Origin: Candidatus Dormiibacterota bacterium
Lineage (GTDB): Bacteria; Acidobacteriota; Polarisedimenticolia; Gp22-AA2
NCBI GenBank assembly: GCA_035635555.1
Contig: DASQAT010000046.1
Location: forward strand, 320,075 to 384,074
DNA: 64,000 nt
Direction of reading: 5' to 3'
Shown: positions 51,222 through 64,000 of the stretch, in pieces
Position numbering within the stretch: position 1 is the stretch's first letter
Layout: every line of letters begins with the position of its first letter
Program-made: the position numbers and the translations under genes
Notes under the pieces: generated by a model
What the model saw: the letters and a program-made list of their open reading frames with translations, nothing else
Database searches by the model: none
What the model was told of the DNA's origin: nothing

Positions 51222-54200
51222 CGGAATCTCACGGCTCCCTTCCCCAGAAGACCCTCCAGGGCCAGCGTCAGATCGCGGCTGGGCGAGACCTTGAGGGCAT
51301 CCCCCGCGCGGAGCGTGGCTCGGAAGCCCTGTGGCTGCGTCACTTCGATGAAGACGGGACAGGGCCCCGGTCGTTCGCGCAGGAGATCCCGCACCCTCTC
51401 CACGGCGGCGTCACCGAACCCCGCCTGGGGGATGGCAAGGACAATCTCCCTGGCCTTCTCCTCGGCCTGGTCCAGGTGAAGGAGGCTTTCCGCGATGAGG
51501 CGCTTCTGGTCGTCGGCCACCTCGACGTTGCCGCTCACCAGGAGCGCCGCGTCCTCGTCCAGGAGACTCCGGTGCTTCGCGTAGGTATCCGGGAACGCGA
51601 TGACCTCGAGCGACCCGTCGAGGTCGTCCAGACGGAACACCGCCATCATGTCCCCGCGCCTCGTCTTGCGTCGTTTCAGGGCGGACACAATCCCGGCGAC
51701 GGCAACCTTGCGCGGCTTCTGGATTTCTTTCACCGTGGAGGTCGTATGGGTGACCAGGCCCTTCAGACGCGCGGCATATTCCTTGAAGGGGTGCCCGGCC
51801 ATGTAGAAGCCGAGGACTTCCTTCTCCCCTGCCAGCAGCTCCCGGTCGGACCACTCCCGGACACTCTCTGTGGGCACCGCCGCGGCACCGAGGGCCGCGG
51901 GGCCGGCGAACAGACCGGCCTGGCCGCTCTCCCTGTCCCGCAGAGCGTTCTGGCCCGCTTCGATGGCTGCGTCGACACCGGTGAAAAGAGCCGACCTGGA
52001 GGGGCCAAGGTGGTCGAGCGCGCCGGCCTTCACGAGAGACTCGAGGACGCGCTTGTTGATGGTGCGCAGGTCGATCGCGGAGCAGAGAGCCGCGAGGGAT
52101 CCGAAAGGACCATGCGACGCGCGGGCCTCGACCATCGTCCGCGCGGCCCCCTCGCCGACGTTCTTGACCGCTCCCAGTCCGAAGCGGATCCCCTCCGGCT
52201 GGACCGTGAAATCGACACCCGAGTGGTTGACGTGCGGCGGGAGCACGGCGATGCCCATCTCCTTCGATTCGCCGATGTACTTGACGATGTTGTCGGTGTT
52301 GTCCTTCTCCATCGTCAGGAGGGAGGCCATGAAATGCCGGGGGTAGTGCGCCTTCAACCAGGCCGTCCGGTACGCGATCAGGGCGTACGCGGTGGAATGC
52401 GCCTTGTTGAAGCCGTAGCCGGCAAAGTGCTCCATCAGATCGAATAGCCGTTTCGCGTCCTTCTCTCCGACCTCGCGAGACCGGCATCCCTTCGTGAACT
52501 TCTCGCGTTGCGCGGCCATGACGTCCTTCTTCTTCTTGCCCATGGCCCGACGCAGGATGTCGGCTTCTCCCAGGGTGAAGCCGGCGAGACGCGACGCGAT
52601 CTGCATCACCTGCTCCTGGTACACGATGACGCCGTAGGTGACCCCGAGGATCTCCTCGAGCTGCGGGACGATGTATTCGATGGCCTTGCGGCCATGCCGC
52701 CGCTCGACGTAATCGTCGATCATTCCCGAGCCGATGGGTCCCGGGCGGAACAGGGCGTTCAAGGCGATGAGGTCCTCGAATCGGTCCGGCTTCAGCTTGC
52801 GGAGGATGTCCTTCATGCCCGAGGACTCAAACTGGAACACGCCGTCCGTGCGCGCTCCCTGGAAGCAGGCGTAGGTTTCCGGATCGTCGAGCAGCAGCGT
52901 CTCGACGTCCACGTGGACCCCCTCGTCGGCGCGGATTCGTTCCCGACAGTCCTGGATGATCGTCAGCGTCTTGAGGCCGAGGAAATCCATCTTCAGGAGT
53001 CCGATGCTGCCGATCTCCTCCATGGCATATTGCGTGACGATCTCGTCGTCCCGCGTGCGTGCCAGGGGTGAGAACTCGACGATCGGCCGGGGCGAGATCA
53101 CCACCCCTGCGGCATGCACCGAGGCGTGACGCGTCAATCCTTCGAGCCGTCTCGAGACGTCCAGGAGTTGCCGGATCCGATCATCCTGTTCGTGCATCTG
53201 GCGGAGCGCCGGCACGGTGTTGATCGCCTTGTCGATCGTCATGTCCGGCTCGGCCGGTATCAGTTTCGCGATCCGGTCGCAGTCGCCGAACGCGATGTCG
53301 AGCCCGCGGCCCGCGTCGCGGATCACGGCCTTGGCGCCCATGGTCGCGAACGTGATGATCTGGGCGACGTTCTCCCGTCCGTACTTGTCGCGCACGTAGT
53401 CGATGACGGCGCCGCGCCCCCGCATGCAGAAGTCGATGTCGATGTCCGGCATCGTGATCCGCTCCGGGTTCAGGAAGCGCTCGAACAGGAGGTCGTACTG
53501 GAGCGGGTCGACATCCGTGATGCGCAGACAGAAGGCGACCAGGGAGCCGGCCGCCGAACCACGGCCCGGACCGACGGGAACGCCCTTGTCCCGGGCGTAC
53601 TTGATGAAGTCCCAGACGATGAGAAAGTATCCGGCGAACCCCATGCGGATGACCATGTCGATCTCACTCGCCAGGCGCCGTCCGTACTCTTCGATCGGGA
53701 CGCGGAGCAGGCCTTTCGCGGCGAGGGCCTTCCAGGCGGGCAGCCTTTCCTCGAAACCGCGCTCCGACATGTCGCGGAAGTACTCTTCGACGGTCCTCCC
53801 CTCGGGAACCTGGAAATGCGGCAGCAGGTTGTCTCCCTTGGGCATGACCAGGTTGCAGCGTTCCGCGACGAGCAGCGTGTTCTCGACCGCCTCCGGGAGG
53901 TGCTTGAACGCCGTCCACATCTCTTCGGGCGACTTGAAATAGTGCTCCTGGGTGAAGCGCATGCGGTCGGCGTCCTTGACCGTCTTGCCGGTCTGGATGC
54001 AGATCAGGATGTCGTGCGCGAAGTGGTCGTCGCGCCTCAGGAAGTGACAGTCGTTCGTGGCCAGCAGCGGGATCTTGAGGCGCCTCCCCAGGGGCACCAG
54101 GACTTCGTTCAGCAGCTTCTCCTCCGGCAGGCCCTGGTCCTGAATCTCGAAAAAGAAATTTTCGGCGCCGAAGATCTCCCGGTACTCGCAGGCGACACGT

Positions 54201-54679
54201 TCGGCCTCGGCCTGCCGACCCGAAAGAATGAGCTGGGGGATCTCTCCTCCGAGACAGGTGGAGGTCGCGATCAGACCGCGTCCGTGTCTCTCCAGGAGCT
54301 CACGATCGATGCGCGGCCGGTAGTAGTACCCCTCCAGAAACCCCGCGGTGGAGAGCCGCATGAGGTTCTGATAGCCGGTCTGGTCCCGGGCGAGGAGGAG
54401 CAGGTGATAGTAGGGCTTCTTTCCCGCACCCGCAGGCGTGCGATCCGTACGCGAGCCGGGCGCAATGTAGGTCTCGCACCCCAGGATCGGCTTGATCCCT
54501 TTCTCGGCCGCGGCCTCGAAGAACGGGACGGCGCCGAAGAGATTGCCGTGGTCCGTAACGGCCACGGCCGGCATCCCGAAGCGCGCCGCCTGCTCGACGA
54601 GCTCCTCGAGCTTGGAGGCGCCGTCCAGGAGGGAGTACTGGGAATGATTGTGCAGGTGTACGAAGCTCGTGTCGGCCAT
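51218..54679 (-). CDS. dnaE: DNA polymerase III alpha subunit
   Basis: PHP domain [15 protein letters not shown], polymerase core and OB fold. Internal ATG 54679 ([10 protein letters not shown]) is chosen. Confidence 0.9.
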
Positions 54680-54686
54680 CGCGCGG

Positions 54687-56222
54687 TCACTCCCACTCGA
54701 TGGTGGCGGGCGGCTTGCTGCTGATGTCGTAGACGACTCGATTGACACCGCGCACTTCGTTCACGATCCGCGCGCTGACCGCCGCGAGAAAATCGAGCGG
54801 CAGACGGGCCCAGTCGGCCGTCATGAAGTCATCCGTGGTGACCGCGCGGAGCGCCACGACGTTTTCGTAGGTCCTGCCGTCGCCCATCACGCCCACCGAG
54901 CGGACCGGCAGGAGGACGGCGAACGCCTGGGACGTTTCGTAGTACAGGCCCGCAGAGCGCAATTCATGGAGGAAGATGGCGTCGACCCGTCTGAGGATGG
55001 CGAGGCGCTCTTCGGTGACCTCCCCCAGGACGCGGACGGCAAGACCCGGCCCCGGGAAGGGATGACGCAGCAAGATGGCGTCGTCCAGGCCCAGCTCCCG
55101 GCCGAGACGGCGCACCTCGTCCTTGAACAGCTCCCGCAGTGGTTCCACCAGTTTCAGCCTCATCGTGCTCGGCAGTCCTCCGACATTGTGGTGCGTCTTG
55201 ATGACCGCCGAGGGTCCCTTGTGGGAGGTCGACTCGATCAGGTCGGGATAGAGCGTTCCCTGGGCCAGGAACTCCACAGGGCCGAGATCCCTCGCGGCCG
55301 CCTCGAACACCTCGATGAACACCCGGCCGATCGTCCGCCGTTTTTCCTCGGGGTCGACGAGGCCTCGAAGCTCAGTGAGGAAGCGCCGCGCGGCGTCGAT
55401 GCGCTCGACCTTGACGTGAAAGGCACGATCGAACGTGTCCAGCACCGACTCCGCCTCGTCCTGCCGCAAGAGCCCGTTGTCTACGAACAGACCGTGGAGC
55501 CGGTCGCCGATCGCCCGGTGGATCAGGAGGGCCGCCACCGCCGAGTCCACCCCGCCGCTCAGCCCCGCCACGACGCGACCGTTGCCCACCCGGGCCCGGA
55601 TGGCCGCGATCGATTCCTCGATGAACGAACTCATCTTCCAGCTGCCGGTGCACCCGCAGACGTCGTACAGGAAGTTGCGCAGGATGTCCCTGCCGCGCTC
55701 CGTGTGCATGACTTCCGGGTGGAACTGGATGGCGTGGAGCCGCCTCCCCGCGTCGGCCATGGCGGCGCAGGCGGAGTTCGTGCTCGTGGCCGTCCGTTCG
55801 AAACCGCGCGGGACTTCGACCACTTCGTCCCCGTGACTCATCCAGACCCTCTGGACACCGGGCTGGCCGGCGAACAGGCCGGCCGCGCGCAGCACGCGCA
55901 GCTCCGACGGCCCGAACTCGCGCTGCGGCGAGCGGATGACCCTGCCACCGAGCTGGTGGGCCATGAGCTGCATGCCGTAGCAGATTCCCAGGATCGGCAG
56001 CCCCAGCCTGTACACCGCCTCGTCCAGGCGCGGAGCCCCCGGAACATCGACGGACTCGGGGCCGCCCGAAAGGATCAGACCGCGGGCACCCCGCATTCGC
56101 TCGATCGCCGCGTCGAAGGGCACGAGCTCGCTGTACACATTGAGCTCGCGCACCCGGCGCGCGATGAGCTGCGAATATTGAGCCCCGAAATCCAGGACGA
56201 GCACCGTCTCGCGCGAGCTCAT
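54687..56222 (-). CDS. guaA: GMP synthase (glutamine-hydrolysing)
   Basis: GATase ([20 protein letters not shown]), PP-loop SGGVDS and C-terminal dimerisation ...TIEWE. Confidence 0.9.
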
Positions 56223-57277
56223 CTGTCCGCCACCTTCCTCACCCCCGGTTGTCGGACCGGCATCGAGGTCCGGCGCGCCGCGTGGTGCACCAGCCGCTCC
56301 AGCGCGTTCGCCGGGTCCTTCGCCCCCATCCCCTTCAGCTCCCGATCGACCTTGAGGCAGAACGCCAGTGCGTCGCGCAAATCGTCGGCGCGGGCGCCGC
56401 CGACCTCACGGGTGAAGCGTTCGATGCGCCCGCGATCGATGCCGTAGAGGGTCGTGGACTCGCGCGGAGGCAGTCTGCGGGCCTCGGCCACCTTGGCGCG
56501 CAGAGCGTTCCGGAAGTACCACGACAGGCCACCCAGAATCTTGATGGGGTCCTCTCCTTGCCGGAGCAGCGCCCGCAGGATTCCGAGGGCTTCACCCCGC
56601 TCGCCGCGCGCGGCGTGGGCGGCGAGGCGGAAGGAGTCTTCCACGCGCGGCACGTCGGCGAGAAGCGCCAGATCCGCCGCCTCCACCGGGCGTGGTCCGC
56701 CCAGGGAGCTCATCAGCTTTTCGATCTCGGCGTCGACGCGTCCGAGACCCGCGCCCGACAGTCCGGCGGCGATCGCCGAGGCGAGGTCGGGACTGATGCC
56801 GAACCCGCGGGCGCGCAGTCGATCCCGCACGAAGACGGCCGTGCGCGGTTCGTCGAGCGGACCGCAGTCGACCCGCGTGACGTCCTCCGCGAGAACCCGG
56901 TACAGCCCCCTGCGTCGATCGAAGCCGACATCGCTGAAGGCGAGGCACGTCCGTGGATTCGGTGCCTTCAGGTACGCCTTCAGCGGGTCGAGACTCTCGG
57001 CGCGGAGGGCGTCGGCATCGCGCACGACGATGAGGCGACGGGCGCTTCCCATCGGATACGTCCGCGCCAGGTCGAGAAGCGCGCCGAGCGAGATGTCTCC
57101 GCCGCGCACGGCGTCGCGGTCCATGGACAGGGCGTCGCCCGAAACGGTGGCTTGCTCCAGAAGGCGGATTCCCTCGTCGTGGAAGTACGCCTCCTCCCCT
57201 TCGAAAAGATAGACCGGGGCCACCTGGCCGGCCTTGAGGGCCTCGCGGAAGCGGGCGAAGCTCAGAGAGGTTGGCAT
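56219..57277 (-). CDS. holA: DNA polymerase III delta subunit
   Basis: VYLFEGEE..., [25 protein letters not shown]. Conserved leuS-lptE-holA synteny. 4-nt overlap with guaA. Confidence 0.7.
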
Positions 57278-57284
57278 GATCTCC

Positions 57285-57863
57285 TCAGAACCCCTCGAGG
57301 ATCGACGTGACGACGCTCTTCGCGAAGTCGGTCGCCACGTCGTCGATGGCCACGATCTCCTGATCGATGAACACCTGAGGGCTCGTCGCCACGTCGTACT
57401 GCCGCTTGAACAGAAAGTGGTCGTCTTCCCACAGCACGCGATCCGTGGTCGTCTCGCTCAAGGTGACGTGCGCCGTGATCAGGATCTCATAACGCGTGGC
57501 GCGCCCCTGCTCGCTGATGACGACCGGCGTGACGATGTAGCTCAGGATCTCGCCCCGGAGCACCGCCTGCGCCCCTTCTTCACCGGGAAGGATGCGCACT
57601 CTCCCCCGTGTTGTGAACTCGTCGATGACGTGCTCGGTGACCCGCTGCTCCAGCTCGGGGCGATTGGTCCGGTTCACGAACGTGGGGATGCCCACCGATT
57701 GAATCCCCGTCGGCAGCGTGCTCGAGTGTCCCACGAGGTGATAGCCGCAGCCGGCGAGGAGGACAAGCAGGAACGCGGTGACGACAGCGGCCGGGCGGCG
57801 TTCCGGGTCACCGGGAAGCGCCGCGGTGGGTCCGATGGGGGGCACCGACGTCATCCCGCGCAT
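57285..57863 (-). CDS. lptE: LPS-assembly lipoprotein LptE-like
   Basis: Lipobox LLAGCGY. Size and position between leuS and holA are as in many proteobacteria. Confidence 0.6.
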   Translation of the reverse strand: MRGMTSVPPIGPTAALPGDPERRPAAVVTAFLLVLLAGCGYHLVGHSSTLPTGIQSVGIPTFVNRTNRPELEQRVTEHVIDEFTTRGRVRILPGEEGAQAVLRGEILSYIVTPVVISEQGRATRYEILITAHVTLSETTTDRVLWEDDHFLFKRQYDVATSPQVFIDQEIVAIDDVATDFAKSVVTSILEGF

Positions 57864-57902
57864 TATAGATGATGCGGCGCCGGCCCCAACCGGCGCACGC
57901 GT

Positions 57903-60410
57903 CTATCCTACGACGATATTCAGCAATCGGCCCTGCAGATAGATGGTCTTGCGGATGGTGCGCCCCTCGAGATGGAACGCCACATTGACGTCCTGCCGCG
58001 CGCGCGCCACGACTTCGGTTTCCGGGAGAGAGGAGGGGATCAGCAGGCGCCCGCGCAGCCGGCCGTTGACCTGGACCGGAATCTCGACCTCGTCCTCCTT
58101 GAGCCAGCGTTCCGAGGCGGAAGGCCACGCCTGGCGCACGGCAGTGCCCCCCCCGCCCAGGCTCTCCCAGAATTCCTCGGAGATGTGGGGCGCGAACGGC
58201 TGCAGGAGGAGGGCCATCGTCAGACCGGCCTCCTTGAGGCAGGGCAGATCGTCGTCGGTGATCTCCCTGGAGAAGTCCTGGATCTCGTTCAGAAGCTCCA
58301 TCAGTGCGGCCACCGGTGTGTTCAGATGGAGACGCCGCTCGATGTCGACGGTGACGCGCTCGATCGTGCGGTGAACGCGTCGGCGCAGCCGGGCGCGCCG
58401 TGGATCGCCGGCGCCGTCGCCCTCTGCGGGCAGGGGGGCGAGGGCCAGGTCCTCGGCGCGGGGGGCCAGGAGGCGCCAGACTCTTTCGAGGAAACGGAAG
58501 CAGCCCTCTACCCCCATCTCGTTCCACTCGAGGTCCTTCTCGGGAGGGGCGGCGAACAGCGTGAACAGCCGGGTCGTGTCGGCGCCGTAGCGGCGCACCA
58601 TGTCGTCGGGGTCGACGATGTTCCCCTTGGATTTGGACATCGCCGTCCCGCCCTTGAGGACCATCCCCTGGCAGAGGAGATTCTGGACCGGTTCGCCGAA
58701 CTTCAGGAGCCCCAGATCGCGCAGCACCTTGGCGAAGAACCGGCAATAGATGAGGTGCAGCGTGGCGTGCGTGATCCCGCCGACGTAGAGATCGATCGGG
58801 AACCACGCGTTGACGATCGCGGGGTCGAACGGCGCGTGATCGTTGCGGGGGTCGCAGTACCGGAAGAAGTACCAGGACGAATCGACGAACGTGTCCATGG
58901 TGTCGGTCTCGCGCCGTCCTGCGCCGTCGCAGCGCGGACAGGACGTTTCGACGAACGACCTGACGCGCGCCAGGGGCGATCCACCCTCGCCTGTCAGTGG
59001 GACGTCTTCCGGCAGGACGACGGGGAGATCCTCGACGGGCACGGGCACGGTCCCGCAGCGCTCGCAGTAGATGATGGGGATCGGCGTTCCCCAGTACCTC
59101 TGCCGCGAGATGCCCCAGTCCAGGAGGCGGTACTGCACGATCCCTTTCGCGGAGCCTTGGGCTTCCCCGTCGCGCAGCATGGCGCTCCTCGCAGCCCTCG
59201 AGGCCAGACCGGTGTAGGGGCCCGAGTCGACCAGGATGCCGTCCTCGACCATCGCCGATCGCGGCGCGGGCGCCGGAGCGCCGCCCTCGTCGGGGACAAT
59301 GACGGTGCGGACCGGCAGGCCGTGCCGGGTCGCGAAGTCGTAGTCGCGGTCGTCGTGGGCCGGCACGGCCATGATCGCCCCGGTCCCGTACTCCATCAGG
59401 ACGAAGTTGGCGCACCAGACTGGCAGCGTCTCGCCGTTATATGGGTTCCGCACGCGCAGACCGGTATCGATCCCTTCCTTCTCCTCCGGCTCCATGCGGG
59501 AGCGCGTCACGTCGCGGGCGTCGATCCGGCGCAGGAAGTCGTCCAGACGCCGCCGCGCCTCGCCCCCCCCGGCAATCCTGCCGAGGACGGGGTGCCGCGG
59601 CGCCACGACGCAGAACGTCGATCCGTAGATGGTGTCCAGGCGGGTCGTGAAGATCTCGAGACTGGCGGCCGTGGGCGCGCCGCCCGCGTCGAGGATCGGG
59701 AACTGGACCGCCGTCCCCTCGCTCCTGCCGATCCAGTTGCGCTGCATCGCACGCACGCGCTCCGGCCAACCGGTCATCGTGTCCAGCTCGGCGTCGAGTT
59801 CGGAGGCGTAGGCCGTGGTCTTCAGGAACCACTGATCGAGCTCGGTGCGGCCGACGACCGAATCACAGCGCCAGCAGCGGCCGTTCTCCACCTGTTCGTT
59901 CGCCAGCACCGTCCGGCACGATCCACACCAGTTCACGAAGCGCCGGCTCCGATAGGCCAGGCCGCGCTCGAACATCTTCAGGAAGAGCCACTGGTTCCAT
60001 CGATAGTAGTCGGGCCGGTGAGCCGCGATCTCGCGGGTCCAGTCGTAGGACAATCCCAGGCGCAGGAGCTGGGCGCGCATGTTGGCGATGTTTTCGTTGG
60101 TCCATTTCGCCGGGTGGATGCCGTGCTTGATGGCGGCGTTCTCGGCGGGCAGACCGAACGAGTCCCACCCCATCGGGTGAAGAACCTCCCGGCCACGCAT
60201 CCCCTGAAACCGGGCCACCGCGTCGCCGATCGCATAGTTGCGGACATGTCCCATGTGGAGACGTCCGGACGGATACGGAAGCATCTCCAGGCAGTAGAAC
60301 TCCCGGCCTGAGGGGACCCGCGGCGCCTCGAAGACCCGCTCCCTGCTCCAGCGCTCCTGCCACTTGCGCTCGATGGAATCGAAATGATCCCGGTACTCTC
60401 CCAGCATCAT
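57903..60410 (-). CDS. leuS: Leucine--tRNA ligase
   Basis: PYPSGRLHMGHVRNY (HIGH), KMSKSKGN and CP1 editing domain. Confidence 0.9.
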   Translation of the reverse strand: MMLGEYRDHFDSIERKWQERWSRERVFEAPRVPSGREFYCLEMLPYPSGRLHMGHVRNYAIGDAVARFQGMRGREVLHPMGWDSFGLPAENAAIKHGIHPAKWTNENIANMRAQLLRLGLSYDWTREIAAHRPDYYRWNQWLFLKMFERGLAYRSRRFVNWCGSCRTVLANEQVENGRCWRCDSVVGRTELDQWFLKTTAYASELDAELDTMTGWPERVRAMQRNWIGRSEGTAVQFPILDAGGAPTAASLEIFTTRLDTIYGSTFCVVAPRHPVLGRIAGGGEARRRLDDFLRRIDARDVTRSRMEPEEKEGIDTGLRVRNPYNGETLPVWCANFVLMEYGTGAIMAVPAHDDRDYDFATRHGLPVRTVIVPDEGGAPAPAPRSAMVEDGILVDSGPYTGLASRAARSAMLRDGEAQGSAKGIVQYRLLDWGISRQRYWGTPIPIIYCERCGTVPVPVEDLPVVLPEDVPLTGEGGSPLARVRSFVETSCPRCDGAGRRETDTMDTFVDSSWYFFRYCDPRNDHAPFDPAIVNAWFPIDLYVGGITHATLHLIYCRFFAKVLRDLGLLKFGEPVQNLLCQGMVLKGGTAMSKSKGNIVDPDDMVRRYGADTTRLFTLFAAPPEKDLEWNEMGVEGCFRFLERVWRLLAPRAEDLALAPLPAEGDGAGDPRRARLRRRVHRTIERVTVDIERRLHLNTPVAALMELLNEIQDFSREITDDDLPCLKEAGLTMALLLQPFAPHISEEFWESLGGGGTAVRQAWPSASERWLKEDEVEIPVQVNGRLRGRLLIPSSLPETEVVARARQDVNVAFHLEGRTIRKTIYLQGRLLNIVVG

Positions 60411-60526
60411 CCCTCACCTCGCCCTCGATCCGTCCGGAGGGCCGTCATTCTAACAGGAACGCGGTCTCCGCGCGGGTCCCGGTGATTTCAACTTCGTAAC
60501 CCGCAAACCCCGGTGTGCCGACAACT

Positions 60527-60553
60527 TGCGGCCGGGCGCGGGGAACCTATATT
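60527..60553 (+). promoter_or_regulatory. Candidate promoter (TTGCGG-15-TATATT) for the RiPP-like locus
   Basis: Weak. In the divergent leuS/NTase intergenic region. Confidence 0.25.
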
Positions 60554-60592
60554 CGCTGCGCCCGGGTGTGGCGGGCGGCAGGAGCGGTCTCA

Positions 60593-61741
60593 ATGAACAG
60601 TCTCACCTCGCGGGACAGGGTGCGCATTGCGGAGGACATGATCCCCCCGCGCGCCGGCCTCCCGGGAATTCTGGCCGCCCCCGTTCCGCATGACGAGGCC
60701 CTGCAGCAGGCCCTCGCCTGCCTCCCTGCCGGCGACGTTCCGCGATTGCTGGATGTGATCGCCTATCACCGCCTCGACGGACTGGCGCATCGTGCCGTCT
60801 CGCGTCTGCCCCAGGACTCGATCGACCCGTGGCTGCGATCGAGCCTGAAACGGCGCTCGCAGCGCCTCGCGGCGGCGACGCTGTCCCAGGCCCTGGCGCT
60901 CGCCGACGTCCTGGAGGGTCTCGCACGGGCCTCGATCCCGGTCGCGGTCATGCGCGGGCTGCGCACGGTCGAAGCGATCTACCGCGATCGATCCCTCCGT
61001 CCGTTCGAGGACCACGATCTGCTCGTCCTCCCGGAGGATCGCGATTCAGCCCGGGCCGTCCTCCTGCGCATGGGATTCGAGGAGCAGGCCTGGAGTTTCT
61101 TCCGCCGCGGCGGGGTGATCGTCGATCTGCACGTCGATCCCCTGGGCGCGCATCGTCGTCCATCCAGGCATTCCGTGTTCCCCGTCCACTTACGCTCGCT
61201 GTTCTCCCGGGCGACGACGGGACTCGTGGCGGGGGCGCCGTCGCTGGTCTTCGAGCCCGAGGACGAGCTGCTTCTTCTGGCCATCCATCTCGTCAAGCAT
61301 TCCTTCGACAGGCTGGTGCGCCTGGCGGACGTCGCCCATTTCGTCCACCAGAGGCGCGGAGATCTCGACTGGAATCTCCTGTTCCACCGCGCCCGATCGT
61401 GCCGCGCCGCCCGCATCCTCGGCTGGACACTCCGGTCCCTGGCACTTCTCGGCGTCGCCGTCCGAGCCGTGGACGTCCCCGCCATCGAGGACGACGGCCC
61501 CGTGGAGCGTTTCCTGATGCGGCGTGTCCTCGATTCGCGGCCGTTTCCCTACACCGGCGAGGCGCTGATGACCCTGGCCGCCCCCAGTCTTCGACTTCGG
61601 CTCCTGTTCTTGTACGACGCGTTCTGGCCTGCGACCGAACGGCCGCAGGGCGCCTGGCGGACGGCGGGGGCCCTGCCCCGCCGTGTTCTGGACCTGGCGA
61701 AAGAGCGTGCGCTCCAGACCGCCGAGAGGAGGAGAACGTGA
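60593..61741 (+). CDS. Uncharacterised nucleotidyltransferase-family protein (NTP_transf_5-like; HPr-rel-A-system type)
   Basis: LRPFEDHDLLVLPED, DLHVDP... ATG 60593 after GGCAGGAGCGG. The track ORF begins earlier (60515). Confidence 0.55.
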   Translation: MNSLTSRDRVRIAEDMIPPRAGLPGILAAPVPHDEALQQALACLPAGDVPRLLDVIAYHRLDGLAHRAVSRLPQDSIDPWLRSSLKRRSQRLAAATLSQALALADVLEGLARASIPVAVMRGLRTVEAIYRDRSLRPFEDHDLLVLPEDRDSARAVLLRMGFEEQAWSFFRRGGVIVDLHVDPLGAHRRPSRHSVFPVHLRSLFSRATTGLVAGAPSLVFEPEDELLLLAIHLVKHSFDRLVRLADVAHFVHQRRGDLDWNLLFHRARSCRAARILGWTLRSLALLGVAVRAVDVPAIEDDGPVERFLMRRVLDSRPFPYTGEALMTLAAPSLRLRLLFLYDAFWPATERPQGAWRTAGALPRRVLDLAKERALQTAERRRT

Positions 61742-62058
61742 GGGACGAGACCGATCTCCTGCTGCAGCCGTGCCTCCCCTCCCCGGACGTCGTGGCGCGG
61801 CGGGTGGCGGGCGAGTATCTGCTGGTGCCGGTGCGCAACGGCGCTGCGCAGATGGATTACATCTTCACCGCGAACGAAGTAGGAAGCGCGATCTTCCTCC
61901 TGCTGGATGGCTCGCGCGACGGGCGGGACATCGCGCGGCTCCTGAGCCGGGACTTCGCGGTGGACGAGGAACGCGCGCGGATGGACGTGGTCGAGTTCCT
62001 GCGCGACCTGTGCGAGGCGGGGCTGGTTCGCCCCGCGCGGCCCGCGGGCGCACCATGA
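61738..62058 (+). CDS. PqqD-family peptide chaperone (RiPP recognition element, RRE)
   Basis: VARRVAGEYLLVPVRNG...IFTANEVGSAIFLLLDG..DIARLL..F.VDEERARMDVVEFLRDLCEAGLV matches the PqqD pattern. GTG start overlaps the NTase stop (GTGA). It is the last 106 aa of an otherwise spurious 409-aa track ORF. Confidence 0.7.
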   Translation: MRDETDLLLQPCLPSPDVVARRVAGEYLLVPVRNGAAQMDYIFTANEVGSAIFLLLDGSRDGRDIARLLSRDFAVDEERARMDVVEFLRDLCEAGLVRPARPAGAP

Positions 62059-63362
62059 GTCTTCCGGAGATCAGCTACGGCGATTTCGGGGCCCGGCTGT
62101 CGCGCGCGGGAGGCGCCGCCCGCATCCCGCTCTCCGGCTCGATCGAGATCACCTTCAAATGCAATCTGCGCTGCGTCCATTGCTACGTTCCCGACTACTC
62201 GGGCCGGGGCGAGATGACCACCGCGGAGATCAAGAGAATTCTCGGCGAGGCGGCGGACGAGGGTTGTCTGTGGATGCTTCTGACGGGGGGAGAGGTCCTC
62301 TGCCGCAGTGATTTTCCAGAGATCTACATGCACGCCAAGCGCCTGGGCCTTCTGTTGACGGTGTTCAGCAACGGTACCCTGATCGACGAGCGGATCGCCG
62401 ATCTGCTCGCCGAGTATCCGCCGTTCGGGATCGAGTTCACGCTCTACGGACTGTCGGACGAGACCTATCTCAAGACGACCGGGTTCCCGGGACGATTCAC
62501 GCGCGTGCGGCGGGCCATCGATCTCCTCCTGGAGCGCGGTGTGGCGCTCTCCCTCAAGGCGGTGGCGATCGAGCCTCTGCGGGGCGAGATCGAGAAGATG
62601 GCGGCCTTCTGCGATTCGCTCGGCGTCCGATTTCGGTACGACGCCATGGTGCACGGGAGACTGGATGGCTCGCTCGCGCCCACCCAGGTCCGATCGTCTC
62701 CGGATACCGTCGTGGAATACGACGCCACCGACCCCGAGCGCTTCGCGGAATGGCTGAAGTTCTACAAGCAATACGTCAAGCCGACCCGCCCCTCCCCCTA
62801 TCTCATGTCGTGCGGCGCGGGCGTCAACAGCTTCCACGTCACCCCGCAGGGGATGCTCCTGTCCTGCGAGGCCCTGCCGCTTAGCGGCTACGACCTGCGC
62901 CGGGGGAGCTTCCGGGAGGGCTGGTACGGCGTCGTGGGCGACATCCGCGAGCGCCGGGCCGAAGCGTTCAATGTCTGCGCCGCCTGCGAGCTGAAGGCGT
63001 TGTGCGATCGCTGTCCCGCCACCGCCCTCCTCGAGACCGGCAGCCCGGACGGCTGGATACCCTATTACTGCGAAGTCACCCATCGCCGCGCGGCACTCCT
63101 CGAGGACGCCATCGGAGACACGCAGAAGGCGGCGCGCTACCTCGCCCACGCCGAGAGGGTGAAGACCGGCTGGGTCCCCGAGGGAGCGATCCTGCCGCGG
63201 GCAACGGGCCTCCCCGCAGGAGGCGCCGGCTGTGCATCCGGGGGCGCCTGCGCCGCCTCCGGCTGCGGCCGCGCCGCTGCGGTCCAGACACAGCCTGCGT
63301 CTCTTCTCCAAATCGAACGTCCCCCGGTCCACGCCGGGACATCCATGGAGGTCGACCGATGA
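62055..63362 (+). CDS. Radical SAM/SPASM-domain peptide-modifying enzyme
   Basis: CNLRCVHC (CxxxCxxC), GGE motif (LLTGGEVL) and a SPASM-like Cys cluster (CGAGVN...C, CAACELKALCDRCP, YYC). The ATG overlaps the PqqD stop (ATGA). Confidence 0.75.
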   Translation: MSLPEISYGDFGARLSRAGGAARIPLSGSIEITFKCNLRCVHCYVPDYSGRGEMTTAEIKRILGEAADEGCLWMLLTGGEVLCRSDFPEIYMHAKRLGLLLTVFSNGTLIDERIADLLAEYPPFGIEFTLYGLSDETYLKTTGFPGRFTRVRRAIDLLLERGVALSLKAVAIEPLRGEIEKMAAFCDSLGVRFRYDAMVHGRLDGSLAPTQVRSSPDTVVEYDATDPERFAEWLKFYKQYVKPTRPSPYLMSCGAGVNSFHVTPQGMLLSCEALPLSGYDLRRGSFREGWYGVVGDIRERRAEAFNVCAACELKALCDRCPATALLETGSPDGWIPYYCEVTHRRAALLEDAIGDTQKAARYLAHAERVKTGWVPEGAILPRATGLPAGGAGCASGGACAASGCGRAAAVQTQPASLLQIERPPVHAGTSMEVDR

Positions 63363-63550
63363 GCCGCAACAAGACACGGAACGAGGCGGGAGGCCGTCGG
63401 ATCTACGAGACGCCTGCTCTCAGACGCGTGCGCCTGGTACCCGACGAGGCAGTCCTCGCTTCTTGCAAAAACAATGCAACCGCCGGTCCGGCTGGTCCGA
63501 TCCAGAAGTGCGCGACCAACCCGGCAGTGTGTTCCCACAGTGCCAGCTGA
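63359..63550 (+). CDS. Putative RiPP precursor peptide (63 aa): MSRNKTRNEAGGRRIYETPALRRVRLVPDEAVLASCKNNATAGPAGPIQKCATNPAVCSHSAS
   Basis: The ATG overlaps the rSAM stop (ATGA). The leader carries a YxxPxL motif (YETPAL) typical of RRE-bound leaders. The Cys-containing C-terminal core is C-x14-C-x6-C and ends in ...HSAS. Confidence 0.6.
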   Translation: MSRNKTRNEAGGRRIYETPALRRVRLVPDEAVLASCKNNATAGPAGPIQKCATNPAVCSHSAS

Positions 63551-64000
63551 CGGCGGCCGTCCCCTCATTCTCGAGATCGCCCGCATCGGGCTCGAGGTGC
63601 GCACGGCCGATCCCGCCCTGCGCCTCGTCGCCGAGCCGGCGCACCTGCCGTTCCTGGCGGAGGCCACGGTCGAAGACTGCGCCTCCGTCACCCTCGGACC
63701 CGCGTCCCGTCGCCAGGCTCGCAAGCCCTCCGGCAAGACTCTGTTCGAGACCGGCTCGGTCTGGCGTCTCGAGGAGGTCGGCGACAACCGGCTTCTGACA
63801 TTCCGCTCGCCGCTGTTCGGAAAAGACCCCTACCTGTCGGTCGAGTTCGACCGGGAGTACGCCCGGGGCGAGGGCGAGACACTCGTGGGCGGCCCGATCC
63901 TGGCCGCTGGAGAGCTGCACCCCTTCGTCTATCCGTTCGACGAAGTCGTGTTCCTGGCGCGGCTGTCGCGCGAGAGGGGCGTCCTGGTGCATGCCTGCGG
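63540..64000 (+). CDS. Partial ORF (runs off window end), candidate HprK-related kinase A-like protein
   Basis: Open frame with no stop from at least 63474 to the window end. It encodes ...LILEIARIGLEVRTADPALRLVAEPAHLPF...LHPFVYPFDEVVFLARLSRERGVLVHACG, which resembles the region preceding the P-loop of HprK-family kinases. The start is uncertain (GTG 63540 or ATG 63474). It is truncated and so absent from the ORF track. Confidence 0.35.
   Translation, partial: MPADGGRPLILEIARIGLEVRTADPALRLVAEPAHLPFLAEATVEDCASVTLGPASRRQARKPSGKTLFETGSVWRLEEVGDNRLLTFRSPLFGKDPYLSVEFDREYARGEGETLVGGPILAAGELHPFVYPFDEVVFLARLSRERGVLVHAC

Follow-up and report, generated by a model that had tools for sequence, protein, structure and literature searches.

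The question raised by this locus is what is encoded by an open frame that starts out inside a short precursor peptide gene and runs, cut off, into the end of the window (by which we mean the whole stretch of 64,000 nucleotides of Candidatus Dormiibacterota DNA that was analyzed), and what its product would do to the peptide encoded directly before it. The preliminary description of this DNA, made from the letters alone, read the frame as a truncated HprK-related kinase and proposed that the kinase phosphorylates the C-terminal serine of the precursor. As shown in Table 1, the final 3.4 kb of the window is filled by a tightly packed operon on the + strand, whose coordinates are public gene calls mapped onto the window. 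The best NCBIfam matches of its radical SAM protein are SPASM maturases, all below cutoff, and the radical SAM gene overlaps the precursor gene by 4 nt (ATGA). The called start of the radical SAM gene lies 8 codons upstream of the residues MSLPE.

Table 1. Operon at the downstream end of the window (positions are those of the window; extrapolated positions lie beyond its last nucleotide)
Feature	Position	Strand	Size	Remarks
PF14907 NTP_transf_5 'uncharacterised nucleotidyltransferase'	60593..61741	+	382 aa	E 5e-40; clade accessory gene
PqqD-family (RRE-type) peptide chaperone	61738..62058	+	106 aa	PF05402, E 3e-14
Radical SAM/SPASM-type peptide maturase	62055..63362	+	435 aa	PF04055, E 3e-23
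Precursor peptide gene	63359..63550	+	63 aa	MSRNKTRNEAGGRRIYETPALRRVRLVPDEAVLASCKNNATAGPAGPIQKCATNPAVCSHSAS; product ends SHSAS, then stop
Precursor/kinase overlap	63540..63550	+	11 nt	precursor ...S-A-S-stop; kinase GTG-CCA-GCT-GA...
Kinase gene, 5' part	63540..64000	+	153 codons + 1 nt of 321-aa product	ScmC-like putative peptide kinase
Kinase Walker A	64035-64061 (extrapolated)	+		outside window
Kinase gene, end	~64505 (extrapolated)	+		outside window

We examined whether the frame is a gene at all. After a TGA at 63360, the frame is open on the + strand from 63363 to the window edge at 64000, as had been described, and, in a different reading frame, it shares sequence with the precursor gene's 3' end. 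This openness is weak evidence, since GC content is 66% and shadow ORFs of ~190 aa cover the same stretch on both strands. Long shadow ORFs are in fact common in the window and, together with the ABC transporters found among the PDB sequence matches of the product (E ~1e-3 to 1e-2), they speak for a reading in which the frame either arose by chance in a GC-rich genome or encodes a P-loop protein of a different family (for example, a sulfotransferase or an ABC ATPase). Four observations led us to treat the frame as a gene: the GC content at the three codon positions from 63540 on (0.76/0.48/0.86) follows the same pattern as in the radical SAM neighbor (0.66/0.52/0.84); 523 of the candidates scored are homologues at E ≤ 0.001; the AlphaFold2 model of the product is confident (see below); and the gene is called concordantly on six public contigs with 97.5-100% identity to the window. 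The exact protein sequence is already present in GenBank (HYS06368.1), where it is labelled 'hypothetical protein'. With the gene, fold and motif data taken together, the chance-frame or other-family reading is refuted and retains a next to negligible probability, and we hold with high confidence that the gene is real and that its product is a P-loop enzyme of HprK/PEPCK fold which serves the precursor cassette specifically.

The missing half of the product was recovered by looking up the exact precursor product in public contigs; a gene with precisely this product is called on 6-9 of them. One of these contigs (L002) is 100% identical to window positions 59361-64000 (4.6 kb) and continues 3.6 kb past the edge, and another (L001) matches the window at 99.83% identity across 10.6 kb and continues 9.5 kb past it. 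Three contigs (L001-L003) carry a called gene of 321 aa (4180-5145 on L002); its start, equivalent to window position 63540, falls 11 nt ahead of where the precursor gene ends. On three shorter contigs (L004-L006), the start is called at the same position and the contig end cuts the gene off. L001 and L002 encode the same product, which agrees with the window translation over its first 153 residues. Across the window edge the protein reads ...VLVHACG, followed by LALGGRGLLFL, GTSGAGKST and TARLW.... The Walker A motif GTSGAGKST (residues 166-174) thus starts 13 residues beyond the last codon that the window contains in full, near the ~10 residues at which the preliminary description had expected a P-loop. 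The part encoded in the window comprises the N-terminal domain, which is rich in beta structure, plus VLVHACG, the strand with which the nucleotide-binding domain begins.

Three in-frame start codons are available to this gene (ATG 63474, GTG 63540 and GTG 63597), and comparison with relatives places the start at GTG 63540 rather than at ATG 63474. Counted back from the end of the precursor stop codon, an ATG or GTG is present at exactly 11 nt in 15/15 clade relatives from species genomes and in 18/18 clade members from metagenomes; eight of the 15 genome loci offer no alternative in-frame start upstream, and in one of the 15 a stop codon sits 3 nt upstream of the kinase start. An equivalent of ATG 63474 occurs in just 2 of the 15 genome relatives, and we rejected this codon. 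GTG 63597 was also rejected, as it would remove the conserved PLxLEIAxIGL N-terminus; homologous proteins with N-termini such as MPAER, MPADC or MARNP... start at the same position relative to this block. Because the 11-nt position is conserved and upstream alternatives are missing or rare, we assign the start to GTG 63540, and the longer overlap that had been suggested to replace the 4-nt coupling of the cluster is thereby borne out within the clade. The other four junctions of the operon are 4-nt overlaps, whereas the precursor/kinase junction is one of 11 nt. Precursor codons -4 and -3 together supply the kinase start codon: AGT-GCC (Ser-Ala) yields GTG, and relatives in which Ala or Gly comes after Asn or Asp (AAT-G, GAT-G) have an ATG start. 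More distant clades mostly have a short intergenic gap between precursor and kinase genes, typically ~10-130 nt, with no overlap. No Shine-Dalgarno-like sequence was found upstream of GTG 63540, and translation of the kinase could plausibly be coupled to that of the precursor by re-initiation via the 11-nt overlap. For annotation, the gain is that the kinase start codon is fixed and that the 11-nt overlap is seen to be clade-conserved.

Next, we considered the family to which the completed product belongs. The fragment encoded in the window (150 of its 153 residues; 63549-63998) matched nothing in NCBIfam or Pfam at E ≤ 0.1. The full-length protein matched HprK-superfamily models only, all below their cutoffs: TIGR04355, HprK-related kinase B (36.8 bits, cutoff 200; E 2.4e-9, residues 138-208); TIGR04249, ScmC (25.5 bits, cutoff 125; E 7e-6); PF07475, Hpr_kinase_C (20.4 bits, cutoff 33.3); TIGR00679, HprK/P (18.2 bits, cutoff 240); and TIGR04352, HprK-related kinase A (17.2 bits, cutoff 200; E 2e-3, residues 146-197). 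These matches are confined to residues 138-208, a pattern repeated in 26/26 homologues scanned, all 26 of which gave sub-threshold matches to TIGR04355 as well as matches to TIGR04249 (best E 1e-11). Among precomputed matches, Pfam family PF27840 (ScmC) is assigned to the exact protein on L001-L003 (E ≤ 1e-5) and to 117 of 120 listed homologues, the other three being fragments that have no Pfam record; our local Pfam scan gave no PF27840 row, and the model is probably absent from the copy used. The kinase belongs to no curated HprK-type NCBIfam family, and its function is not transferable by membership, since the curated HprK-type models score far below their cutoffs. Profiles, motifs and the completed sequence therefore uphold the earlier reading of a P-loop gene of the HprK superfamily, but not the membership in TIGR04352 that had been offered with it: TIGR04355, TIGR04249 and PF27840 all fit better. 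The resemblance to HprK-related kinase A that had been seen in the N-terminal segment was not reproducible, given that only the last 8-16 residues encoded in the window (...GVLVHACG) fall within the HprK-homologous stretch.

The AlphaFold2 model (pLDDT 89.8, pTM 0.87), computed from an alignment headed by a relative that is 95% identical (P0001), aligned best with PEPCK when used in a structure search, over 236 residues and with the N-terminal part included; HprK/P aligned over 121-145 residues only. PEPCK itself is no protein or peptide kinase. A profile of 25 homologues searched against PDB sequences returned HprK/P as the best match (1jb1, 1kkl, 2qmh; E 3e-4), and the family pattern vHacG...GtSGaGKsT...sDDRi aligns with MHGVLV...GDSGVGKSE...ADDRV of Lactobacillus casei HprK/P. 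Residues G166, G169, G171, K172, T174, S189, D190 and R192 are invariant across the 25 homologues (down to 35% identity), as is the block G206-T207-P208-W209, and at least 90% of them retain H151 and D191. The protein thus combines a PEPCK-like nucleotide-binding fold, a GxSGxGKS/T P-loop, an upstream His and a DD(R) motif, the features that define the HprK superfamily, and is a two-domain member of the PEPCK-like/HprK superfamily with its catalytic set intact. Fold and motifs rule out an ABC-ATPase or a sulfotransferase, and likewise the better match to a sulfotransferase or transporter that would have undone the initial reading. An intact nucleotide-binding site could still serve a purpose other than peptide phosphorylation: the protein might phosphorylate the receiver protein encoded downstream or, as PEPCK does, a small molecule, or it might use ATP to assist the radical SAM step as a scaffold or chaperone. 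A best structural match to PEPCK and sub-threshold scores for every curated family model both fit such a role, but the catalytic residues of HprK/P (His, P-loop and DDR) are all invariant or almost so, and we consider this alternative unlikely.

The co-encoded peptide is informative in this respect. The precursor of the window has a YxxPxL-type leader, an invariant EAVL-x-x-CK motif, three Cys residues and a C-terminal Ser. It matched no NCBIfam family at E ≤ 0.1; against Pfam, a single weak match below threshold was obtained (Ribosomal_S21; E 0.023, 14.8 bits, cutoff 27), which we took as chance. The consensus of 147 unique precursor sequences is Y..P...rv.LrP.EAVLg.CK.....GP....C.....C...gS, and three Cys are present in 70 of the 74 unique precursors from genomes. 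At the last position, 141 of the 147 sequences have Ser and 4 have Thr (Ser/Thr in 145/147), which leaves one with Arg and one with Gly. The Arg-ending sequence is an orphan (L156), a complete three-Cys copy with no kinase nearby, and the Gly-ending one, which is without the last two Cys, is probably damaged. In the alignment the last column alone reaches at least 90% hydroxyl residues, with the runner-up column at 60%. That the sole conserved hydroxyl of the co-varying peptide is its last residue argues against a role for the enzyme away from the peptide. The C-terminal Gly/Ala-Ser could also be conserved for another reason, for instance because a protease, an exporter or the radical SAM enzyme recognizes it.

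Linkage between precursor and kinase was then quantified from both sides. A kinase-seeded search of species genomes returned at least 561 stretches that encode a relative, and among the best 80 of these at least 561 loci, genes for PqqD, radical SAM protein, precursor and kinase occur together and in this order in ~75. The genomes carrying these best 80 loci are mostly Acidobacteriota (Polarisedimenticolia, Thermoanaerobaculia, Acidoferrales, Bryobacterales and Vicinamibacteria), and some are labelled Chloroflexota, Armatimonadota, Verrucomicrobiia or Gaiellales. The cassette of PqqD, radical SAM/SPASM protein, precursor and kinase is present in at least several hundred species, most of them Acidobacteriota. 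For the reverse search we scanned metagenomes with the precursor motif P[ED]EAVL[GA]xCK and counted those loci in which the precursor was complete and followed by 700 nt or more of sequence (n = 55). The kinase is the next gene on the same strand in 53 of these 55 loci, and the exceptions (L135 and L156) are orphan precursor copies amid unrelated genes. As the kinase almost always follows a Cys-rich precursor that ends in Ser, the last Ser is its likely target, and the comparative data (Ser/Thr last in 145/147, kinase at 53/55 loci) lend strong backing to the initial suggestion that this residue is the acceptor.

Genes that flank the cassette are less constant. In the clade of the window, the kinase gene is followed, with a 4-nt overlap, by genes for a response regulator (receiver) and a T2SSE-like ATPase/HD protein; about half of the close-clade loci have both, and most others have the ATPase/HD gene alone. 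On L001, flanking genes encode housekeeping functions, the receiver, the ATPase/HD protein and polysaccharide export. The 4-nt overlap with the receiver and ATPase/HD genes in the clade would suit an enzyme that acts on the receiver protein, but these genes are limited to the close clade, whereas the genes that stay with the kinase from phylum to phylum are those for precursor, radical SAM protein and PqqD. The PF14907 nucleotidyltransferase gene lies directly upstream of the PqqD gene in most of the close relatives (L001-L021) whose contigs reach far enough; at two loci (L020 and L022), where PqqD, radical SAM and precursor genes were not detected, its immediate downstream neighbor is the kinase gene. 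Elsewhere this nucleotidyltransferase is only sporadic, and it is missing from most distant clusters (neighbors in distant clusters were identified from gene calls). Two distant clusters have a Peptidase_C25 gene after the kinase gene, together with Peptidase_S24 in one and NTP_transf_5 in the other. In a Chloroflexota cluster, the precursor gene sits after the C25 peptidase gene and its product also ends in Ser.

Putting these observations together with the biochemistry of related enzymes, we favor, with moderate confidence, a reading in which the kinase O-phosphorylates the C-terminal Ser of the radical-SAM-modified precursor in an ATP-dependent manner; it rests on sequence comparison and on analogy to lasso peptide clusters, in which the terminal Ser of the precursor is phosphorylated on its side-chain hydroxyl by HprK homologues, largely irrespective of the remaining sequence (PMC8498205; PMC6993621). 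The PqqD-type chaperone would bind the YxxPxL-type leader of the precursor, and the radical SAM/SPASM enzyme would probably cross-link the peptide at its three Cys. From the gene content and these precedents we infer that the HprK-like enzyme uses ATP to phosphorylate the invariant C-terminal Ser on its side-chain hydroxyl, after which, in the clade of the window, the PF14907 nucleotidyltransferase may add a sugar or a nucleotide to the phosphate. Such a two-step phospho-decoration would at best be clade-limited, since most distant clusters are missing the nucleotidyltransferase.

That same scarcity of the nucleotidyltransferase, which leaves most clusters with no enzyme to use a persistent phosphate, raises a second possibility: the phosphate could be a leaving group, with phospho-Ser eliminated to dehydroalanine or otherwise consumed as the C-terminus is cross-linked to Cys, by the logic of class III/IV lanthipeptides and with a mature product that carries no phosphate. 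Phosphorylation followed by elimination is established chemistry of lanthipeptide pathways, and three invariant Cys and an invariant terminal Ser within one short core would provide the partners. We regard this route as very unlikely, however: no lyase or cyclase domain was found in the operon or among conserved neighbors, the radical SAM/SPASM enzyme already explains the Cys chemistry, and the phosphate is retained in the lasso precedents (PMC8498205; PMC6993621).

Extended to the family as a whole, stable phosphorylation of the last Ser would describe a widespread, Acidobacteriota-centred RiPP class (at least ~560 species-representative genomes) of three-Cys radical SAM/SPASM peptides that are O-phosphorylated at the C-terminal Ser and, in some clades, decorated by PF14907 enzymes; for this broader picture we judge the chances to be about even. 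Phosphorylation is rare among ribosomal natural products, and a November 2025 paper on phosphorylated RiPPs attributes HprK-type kinases only to paeninodin and pseudomycoidin (PMC12639078). Within the literature that we covered, which takes in few subscription papers, we found no report on an HprK-type kinase with a radical SAM/SPASM/PqqD RiPP or on SynChlorMet/ScmC. Already now, a large family of 'hypothetical proteins' (Pfam ScmC) is tied to a precise candidate substrate, the last Ser of a co-encoded peptide. If the broader picture is true, it would represent the first HprK-type peptide phosphorylation outside lasso peptides, give the in-silico 'ScmC' and HprK-related families their first function, and make C-terminal Ser phosphorylation a portable tailoring module across RiPP classes. 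It would also make accessible a peptide class that is abundant in poorly cultured soil Acidobacteriota and bring substrate-tolerant peptide kinases that are new to engineering.

Finally, we compared the cassette with known systems, beginning with lasso peptide kinases. PadeK, PsmK, ThcoK and their proteobacterial homologues are also HprK-superfamily P-loop proteins encoded beside a precursor and a PqqD-type protein; their cognate precursor ends in Ser and their DD metal-site motif is conserved, as in the present cassette, a likeness drawn from published descriptions of the lasso kinases. The PsmN-type nucleotidyltransferase of lasso clusters has its counterpart in the PF14907 gene of the window's clade, and PsmN is presumably a PF14907 protein itself. 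In the pseudomycoidin pathway, one or two hexoses are attached to the phosphate by PsmN, whose family is described as one of uncharacterised nucleotidyltransferases (PMC8498205; PMC6993621), and phosphorylation is abolished when the predicted metal site of PsmK is replaced (D158A D159A; PMC6993621). The core chemistry is different: here maturation falls to a radical SAM/SPASM enzyme, and a lasso-type acceptor is missing from the core peptide, which contains three Cys. Since neither a lasso cyclase (Asn-synthetase-like) nor a transglutaminase-like B2 protease is encoded within ~10 kb on either side (L001), we rejected the identification of the locus as a lasso cluster.

Bona fide HprK/P (PF07475, TIGR00679; PDB 1jb1, 1kkl, 1ko7, 1knx, 3tqf) differs in that the present kinase falls below the family cutoffs, in that the HprK/P signature after DDR is replaced in the present family by an invariant GTPWHG, and in its partner, which is HPr and the PTS for HprK/P and a RiPP precursor, judged by genomic context, for the present kinase. 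ATP-dependent PEPCK is larger (~520 aa vs. 321 aa) and only 11-14% identical; no PEPCK family matched at threshold, and the operon of the present kinase is a peptide maturation context, unlike that of PEPCK. With the HprK-related kinases A and B (TIGR04352 and TIGR04355), homology is shared at the His, P-loop and DDR core (residues 138-208), whereas the N-terminal 137 residues align to neither model. ScmC of the SynChlorMet system (TIGR04249; PF27840), defined in silico only and with no assigned function, occurs in the same type of context, with a PqqD homologue and one or more radical SAM/SPASM maturases. SynChlorMet has two radical SAM genes (ScmE and ScmF) and the present cassette one, and with the score given above the kinase is not a TIGR04249 equivalog. 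Closest in kind to the present cassette, nevertheless, are the SynChlorMet cassette (ScmC, ScmD, ScmE and ScmF) and the 'HprK-related kinase A/B' systems, all defined in silico; set beside the lasso peptide pathways, the locus presents a known tailoring chemistry and a known enzyme superfamily on a different, uncharacterised RiPP scaffold.

Inspection of the junction between the genes of the three-Cys precursor and the HprK-like putative peptide kinase revealed that the precursor codons at positions -4 and -3 contain the kinase start codon (window 63537-63550), and the same arrangement was observed at the junctions of close relatives in genomes (L007-L021) and of clade members in metagenomes (L088-L105). 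Among these loci the kinase starts with GTG when precursor position -4 is Ser (AGT), and with ATG when that position is Asn or Asp (AAT or GAT). Since the two genes share an 11-nt overlap and the start codon lies inside precursor codons, the peptide's final residues and the kinase's first ones are co-constrained. Precursor-like genes also occur as orphans (see table); the one on contig L156 ends in Gly-Arg and is the sole complete three-Cys precursor without a terminal Ser or Thr. In the radical SAM protein, the C-terminus (window 63215-63285) is a low-complexity Gly/Ala/Cys-rich tail that follows the SPASM region, GGAGCASGGACAASGCGRAAA.

Features neighbouring the cassette and orphan precursor-like genes
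Feature	Location	Strand	Context
DnaE, GuaA, DNA polymerase III delta subunit, LptE and LeuRS genes	window 53359-60410	-	housekeeping; upstream of operon, on opposite strand to it
Stand-alone response-regulator receiver, 145 aa	within L002:5142-7890 (extrapolated window 64502-67250), past window edge		overlaps kinase gene end by 4 nt
783-aa protein, T2SSE-like ATPase region and HD domain	within L002:5142-7890 (extrapolated window 64502-67250)		after receiver gene
Orphan precursor-like gene	L135:1812-1907		PqqD, radical SAM and kinase genes all absent nearby
Orphan precursor-like gene	L156:905-985		PqqD, radical SAM and kinase genes all absent nearby

Because the upstream genes are housekeeping genes, the cassette sits in a core-genome neighbourhood and not in a mobile element. 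One of them encodes LptE, an outer-membrane marker. The exact kinase protein is deposited as GenBank HYS06368.1, from a MAG (contig of 423,612 bp) labelled Candidatus Dormibacteraeota; given LptE and the labels of all close relatives (Acidobacteriota or Polarisedimenticolia), this label looks doubtful.

In the two distant clusters examined (Chloroflexota and others; L087:8864-12303 and the context of kinase homologue P0117), a large Peptidase_C25 (gingipain-like) gene lies immediately 3' of the kinase gene, accompanied by Peptidase_S24 in one cluster and NTP_transf_5 in the other, making Peptidase_C25 and Peptidase_S24 candidate leader peptidases there. No obvious protease or transporter was found in the operon of the window's clade. 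Downstream of the kinase, on contig L002, which matches the window and continues past its edge, are the receiver and ATPase/HD genes; most close relatives keep at least one of them in synteny, with both present in approximately half and ATPase/HD alone in most others. Distant clusters carry neither gene, and the pair may be a signalling or export add-on specific to the clade.
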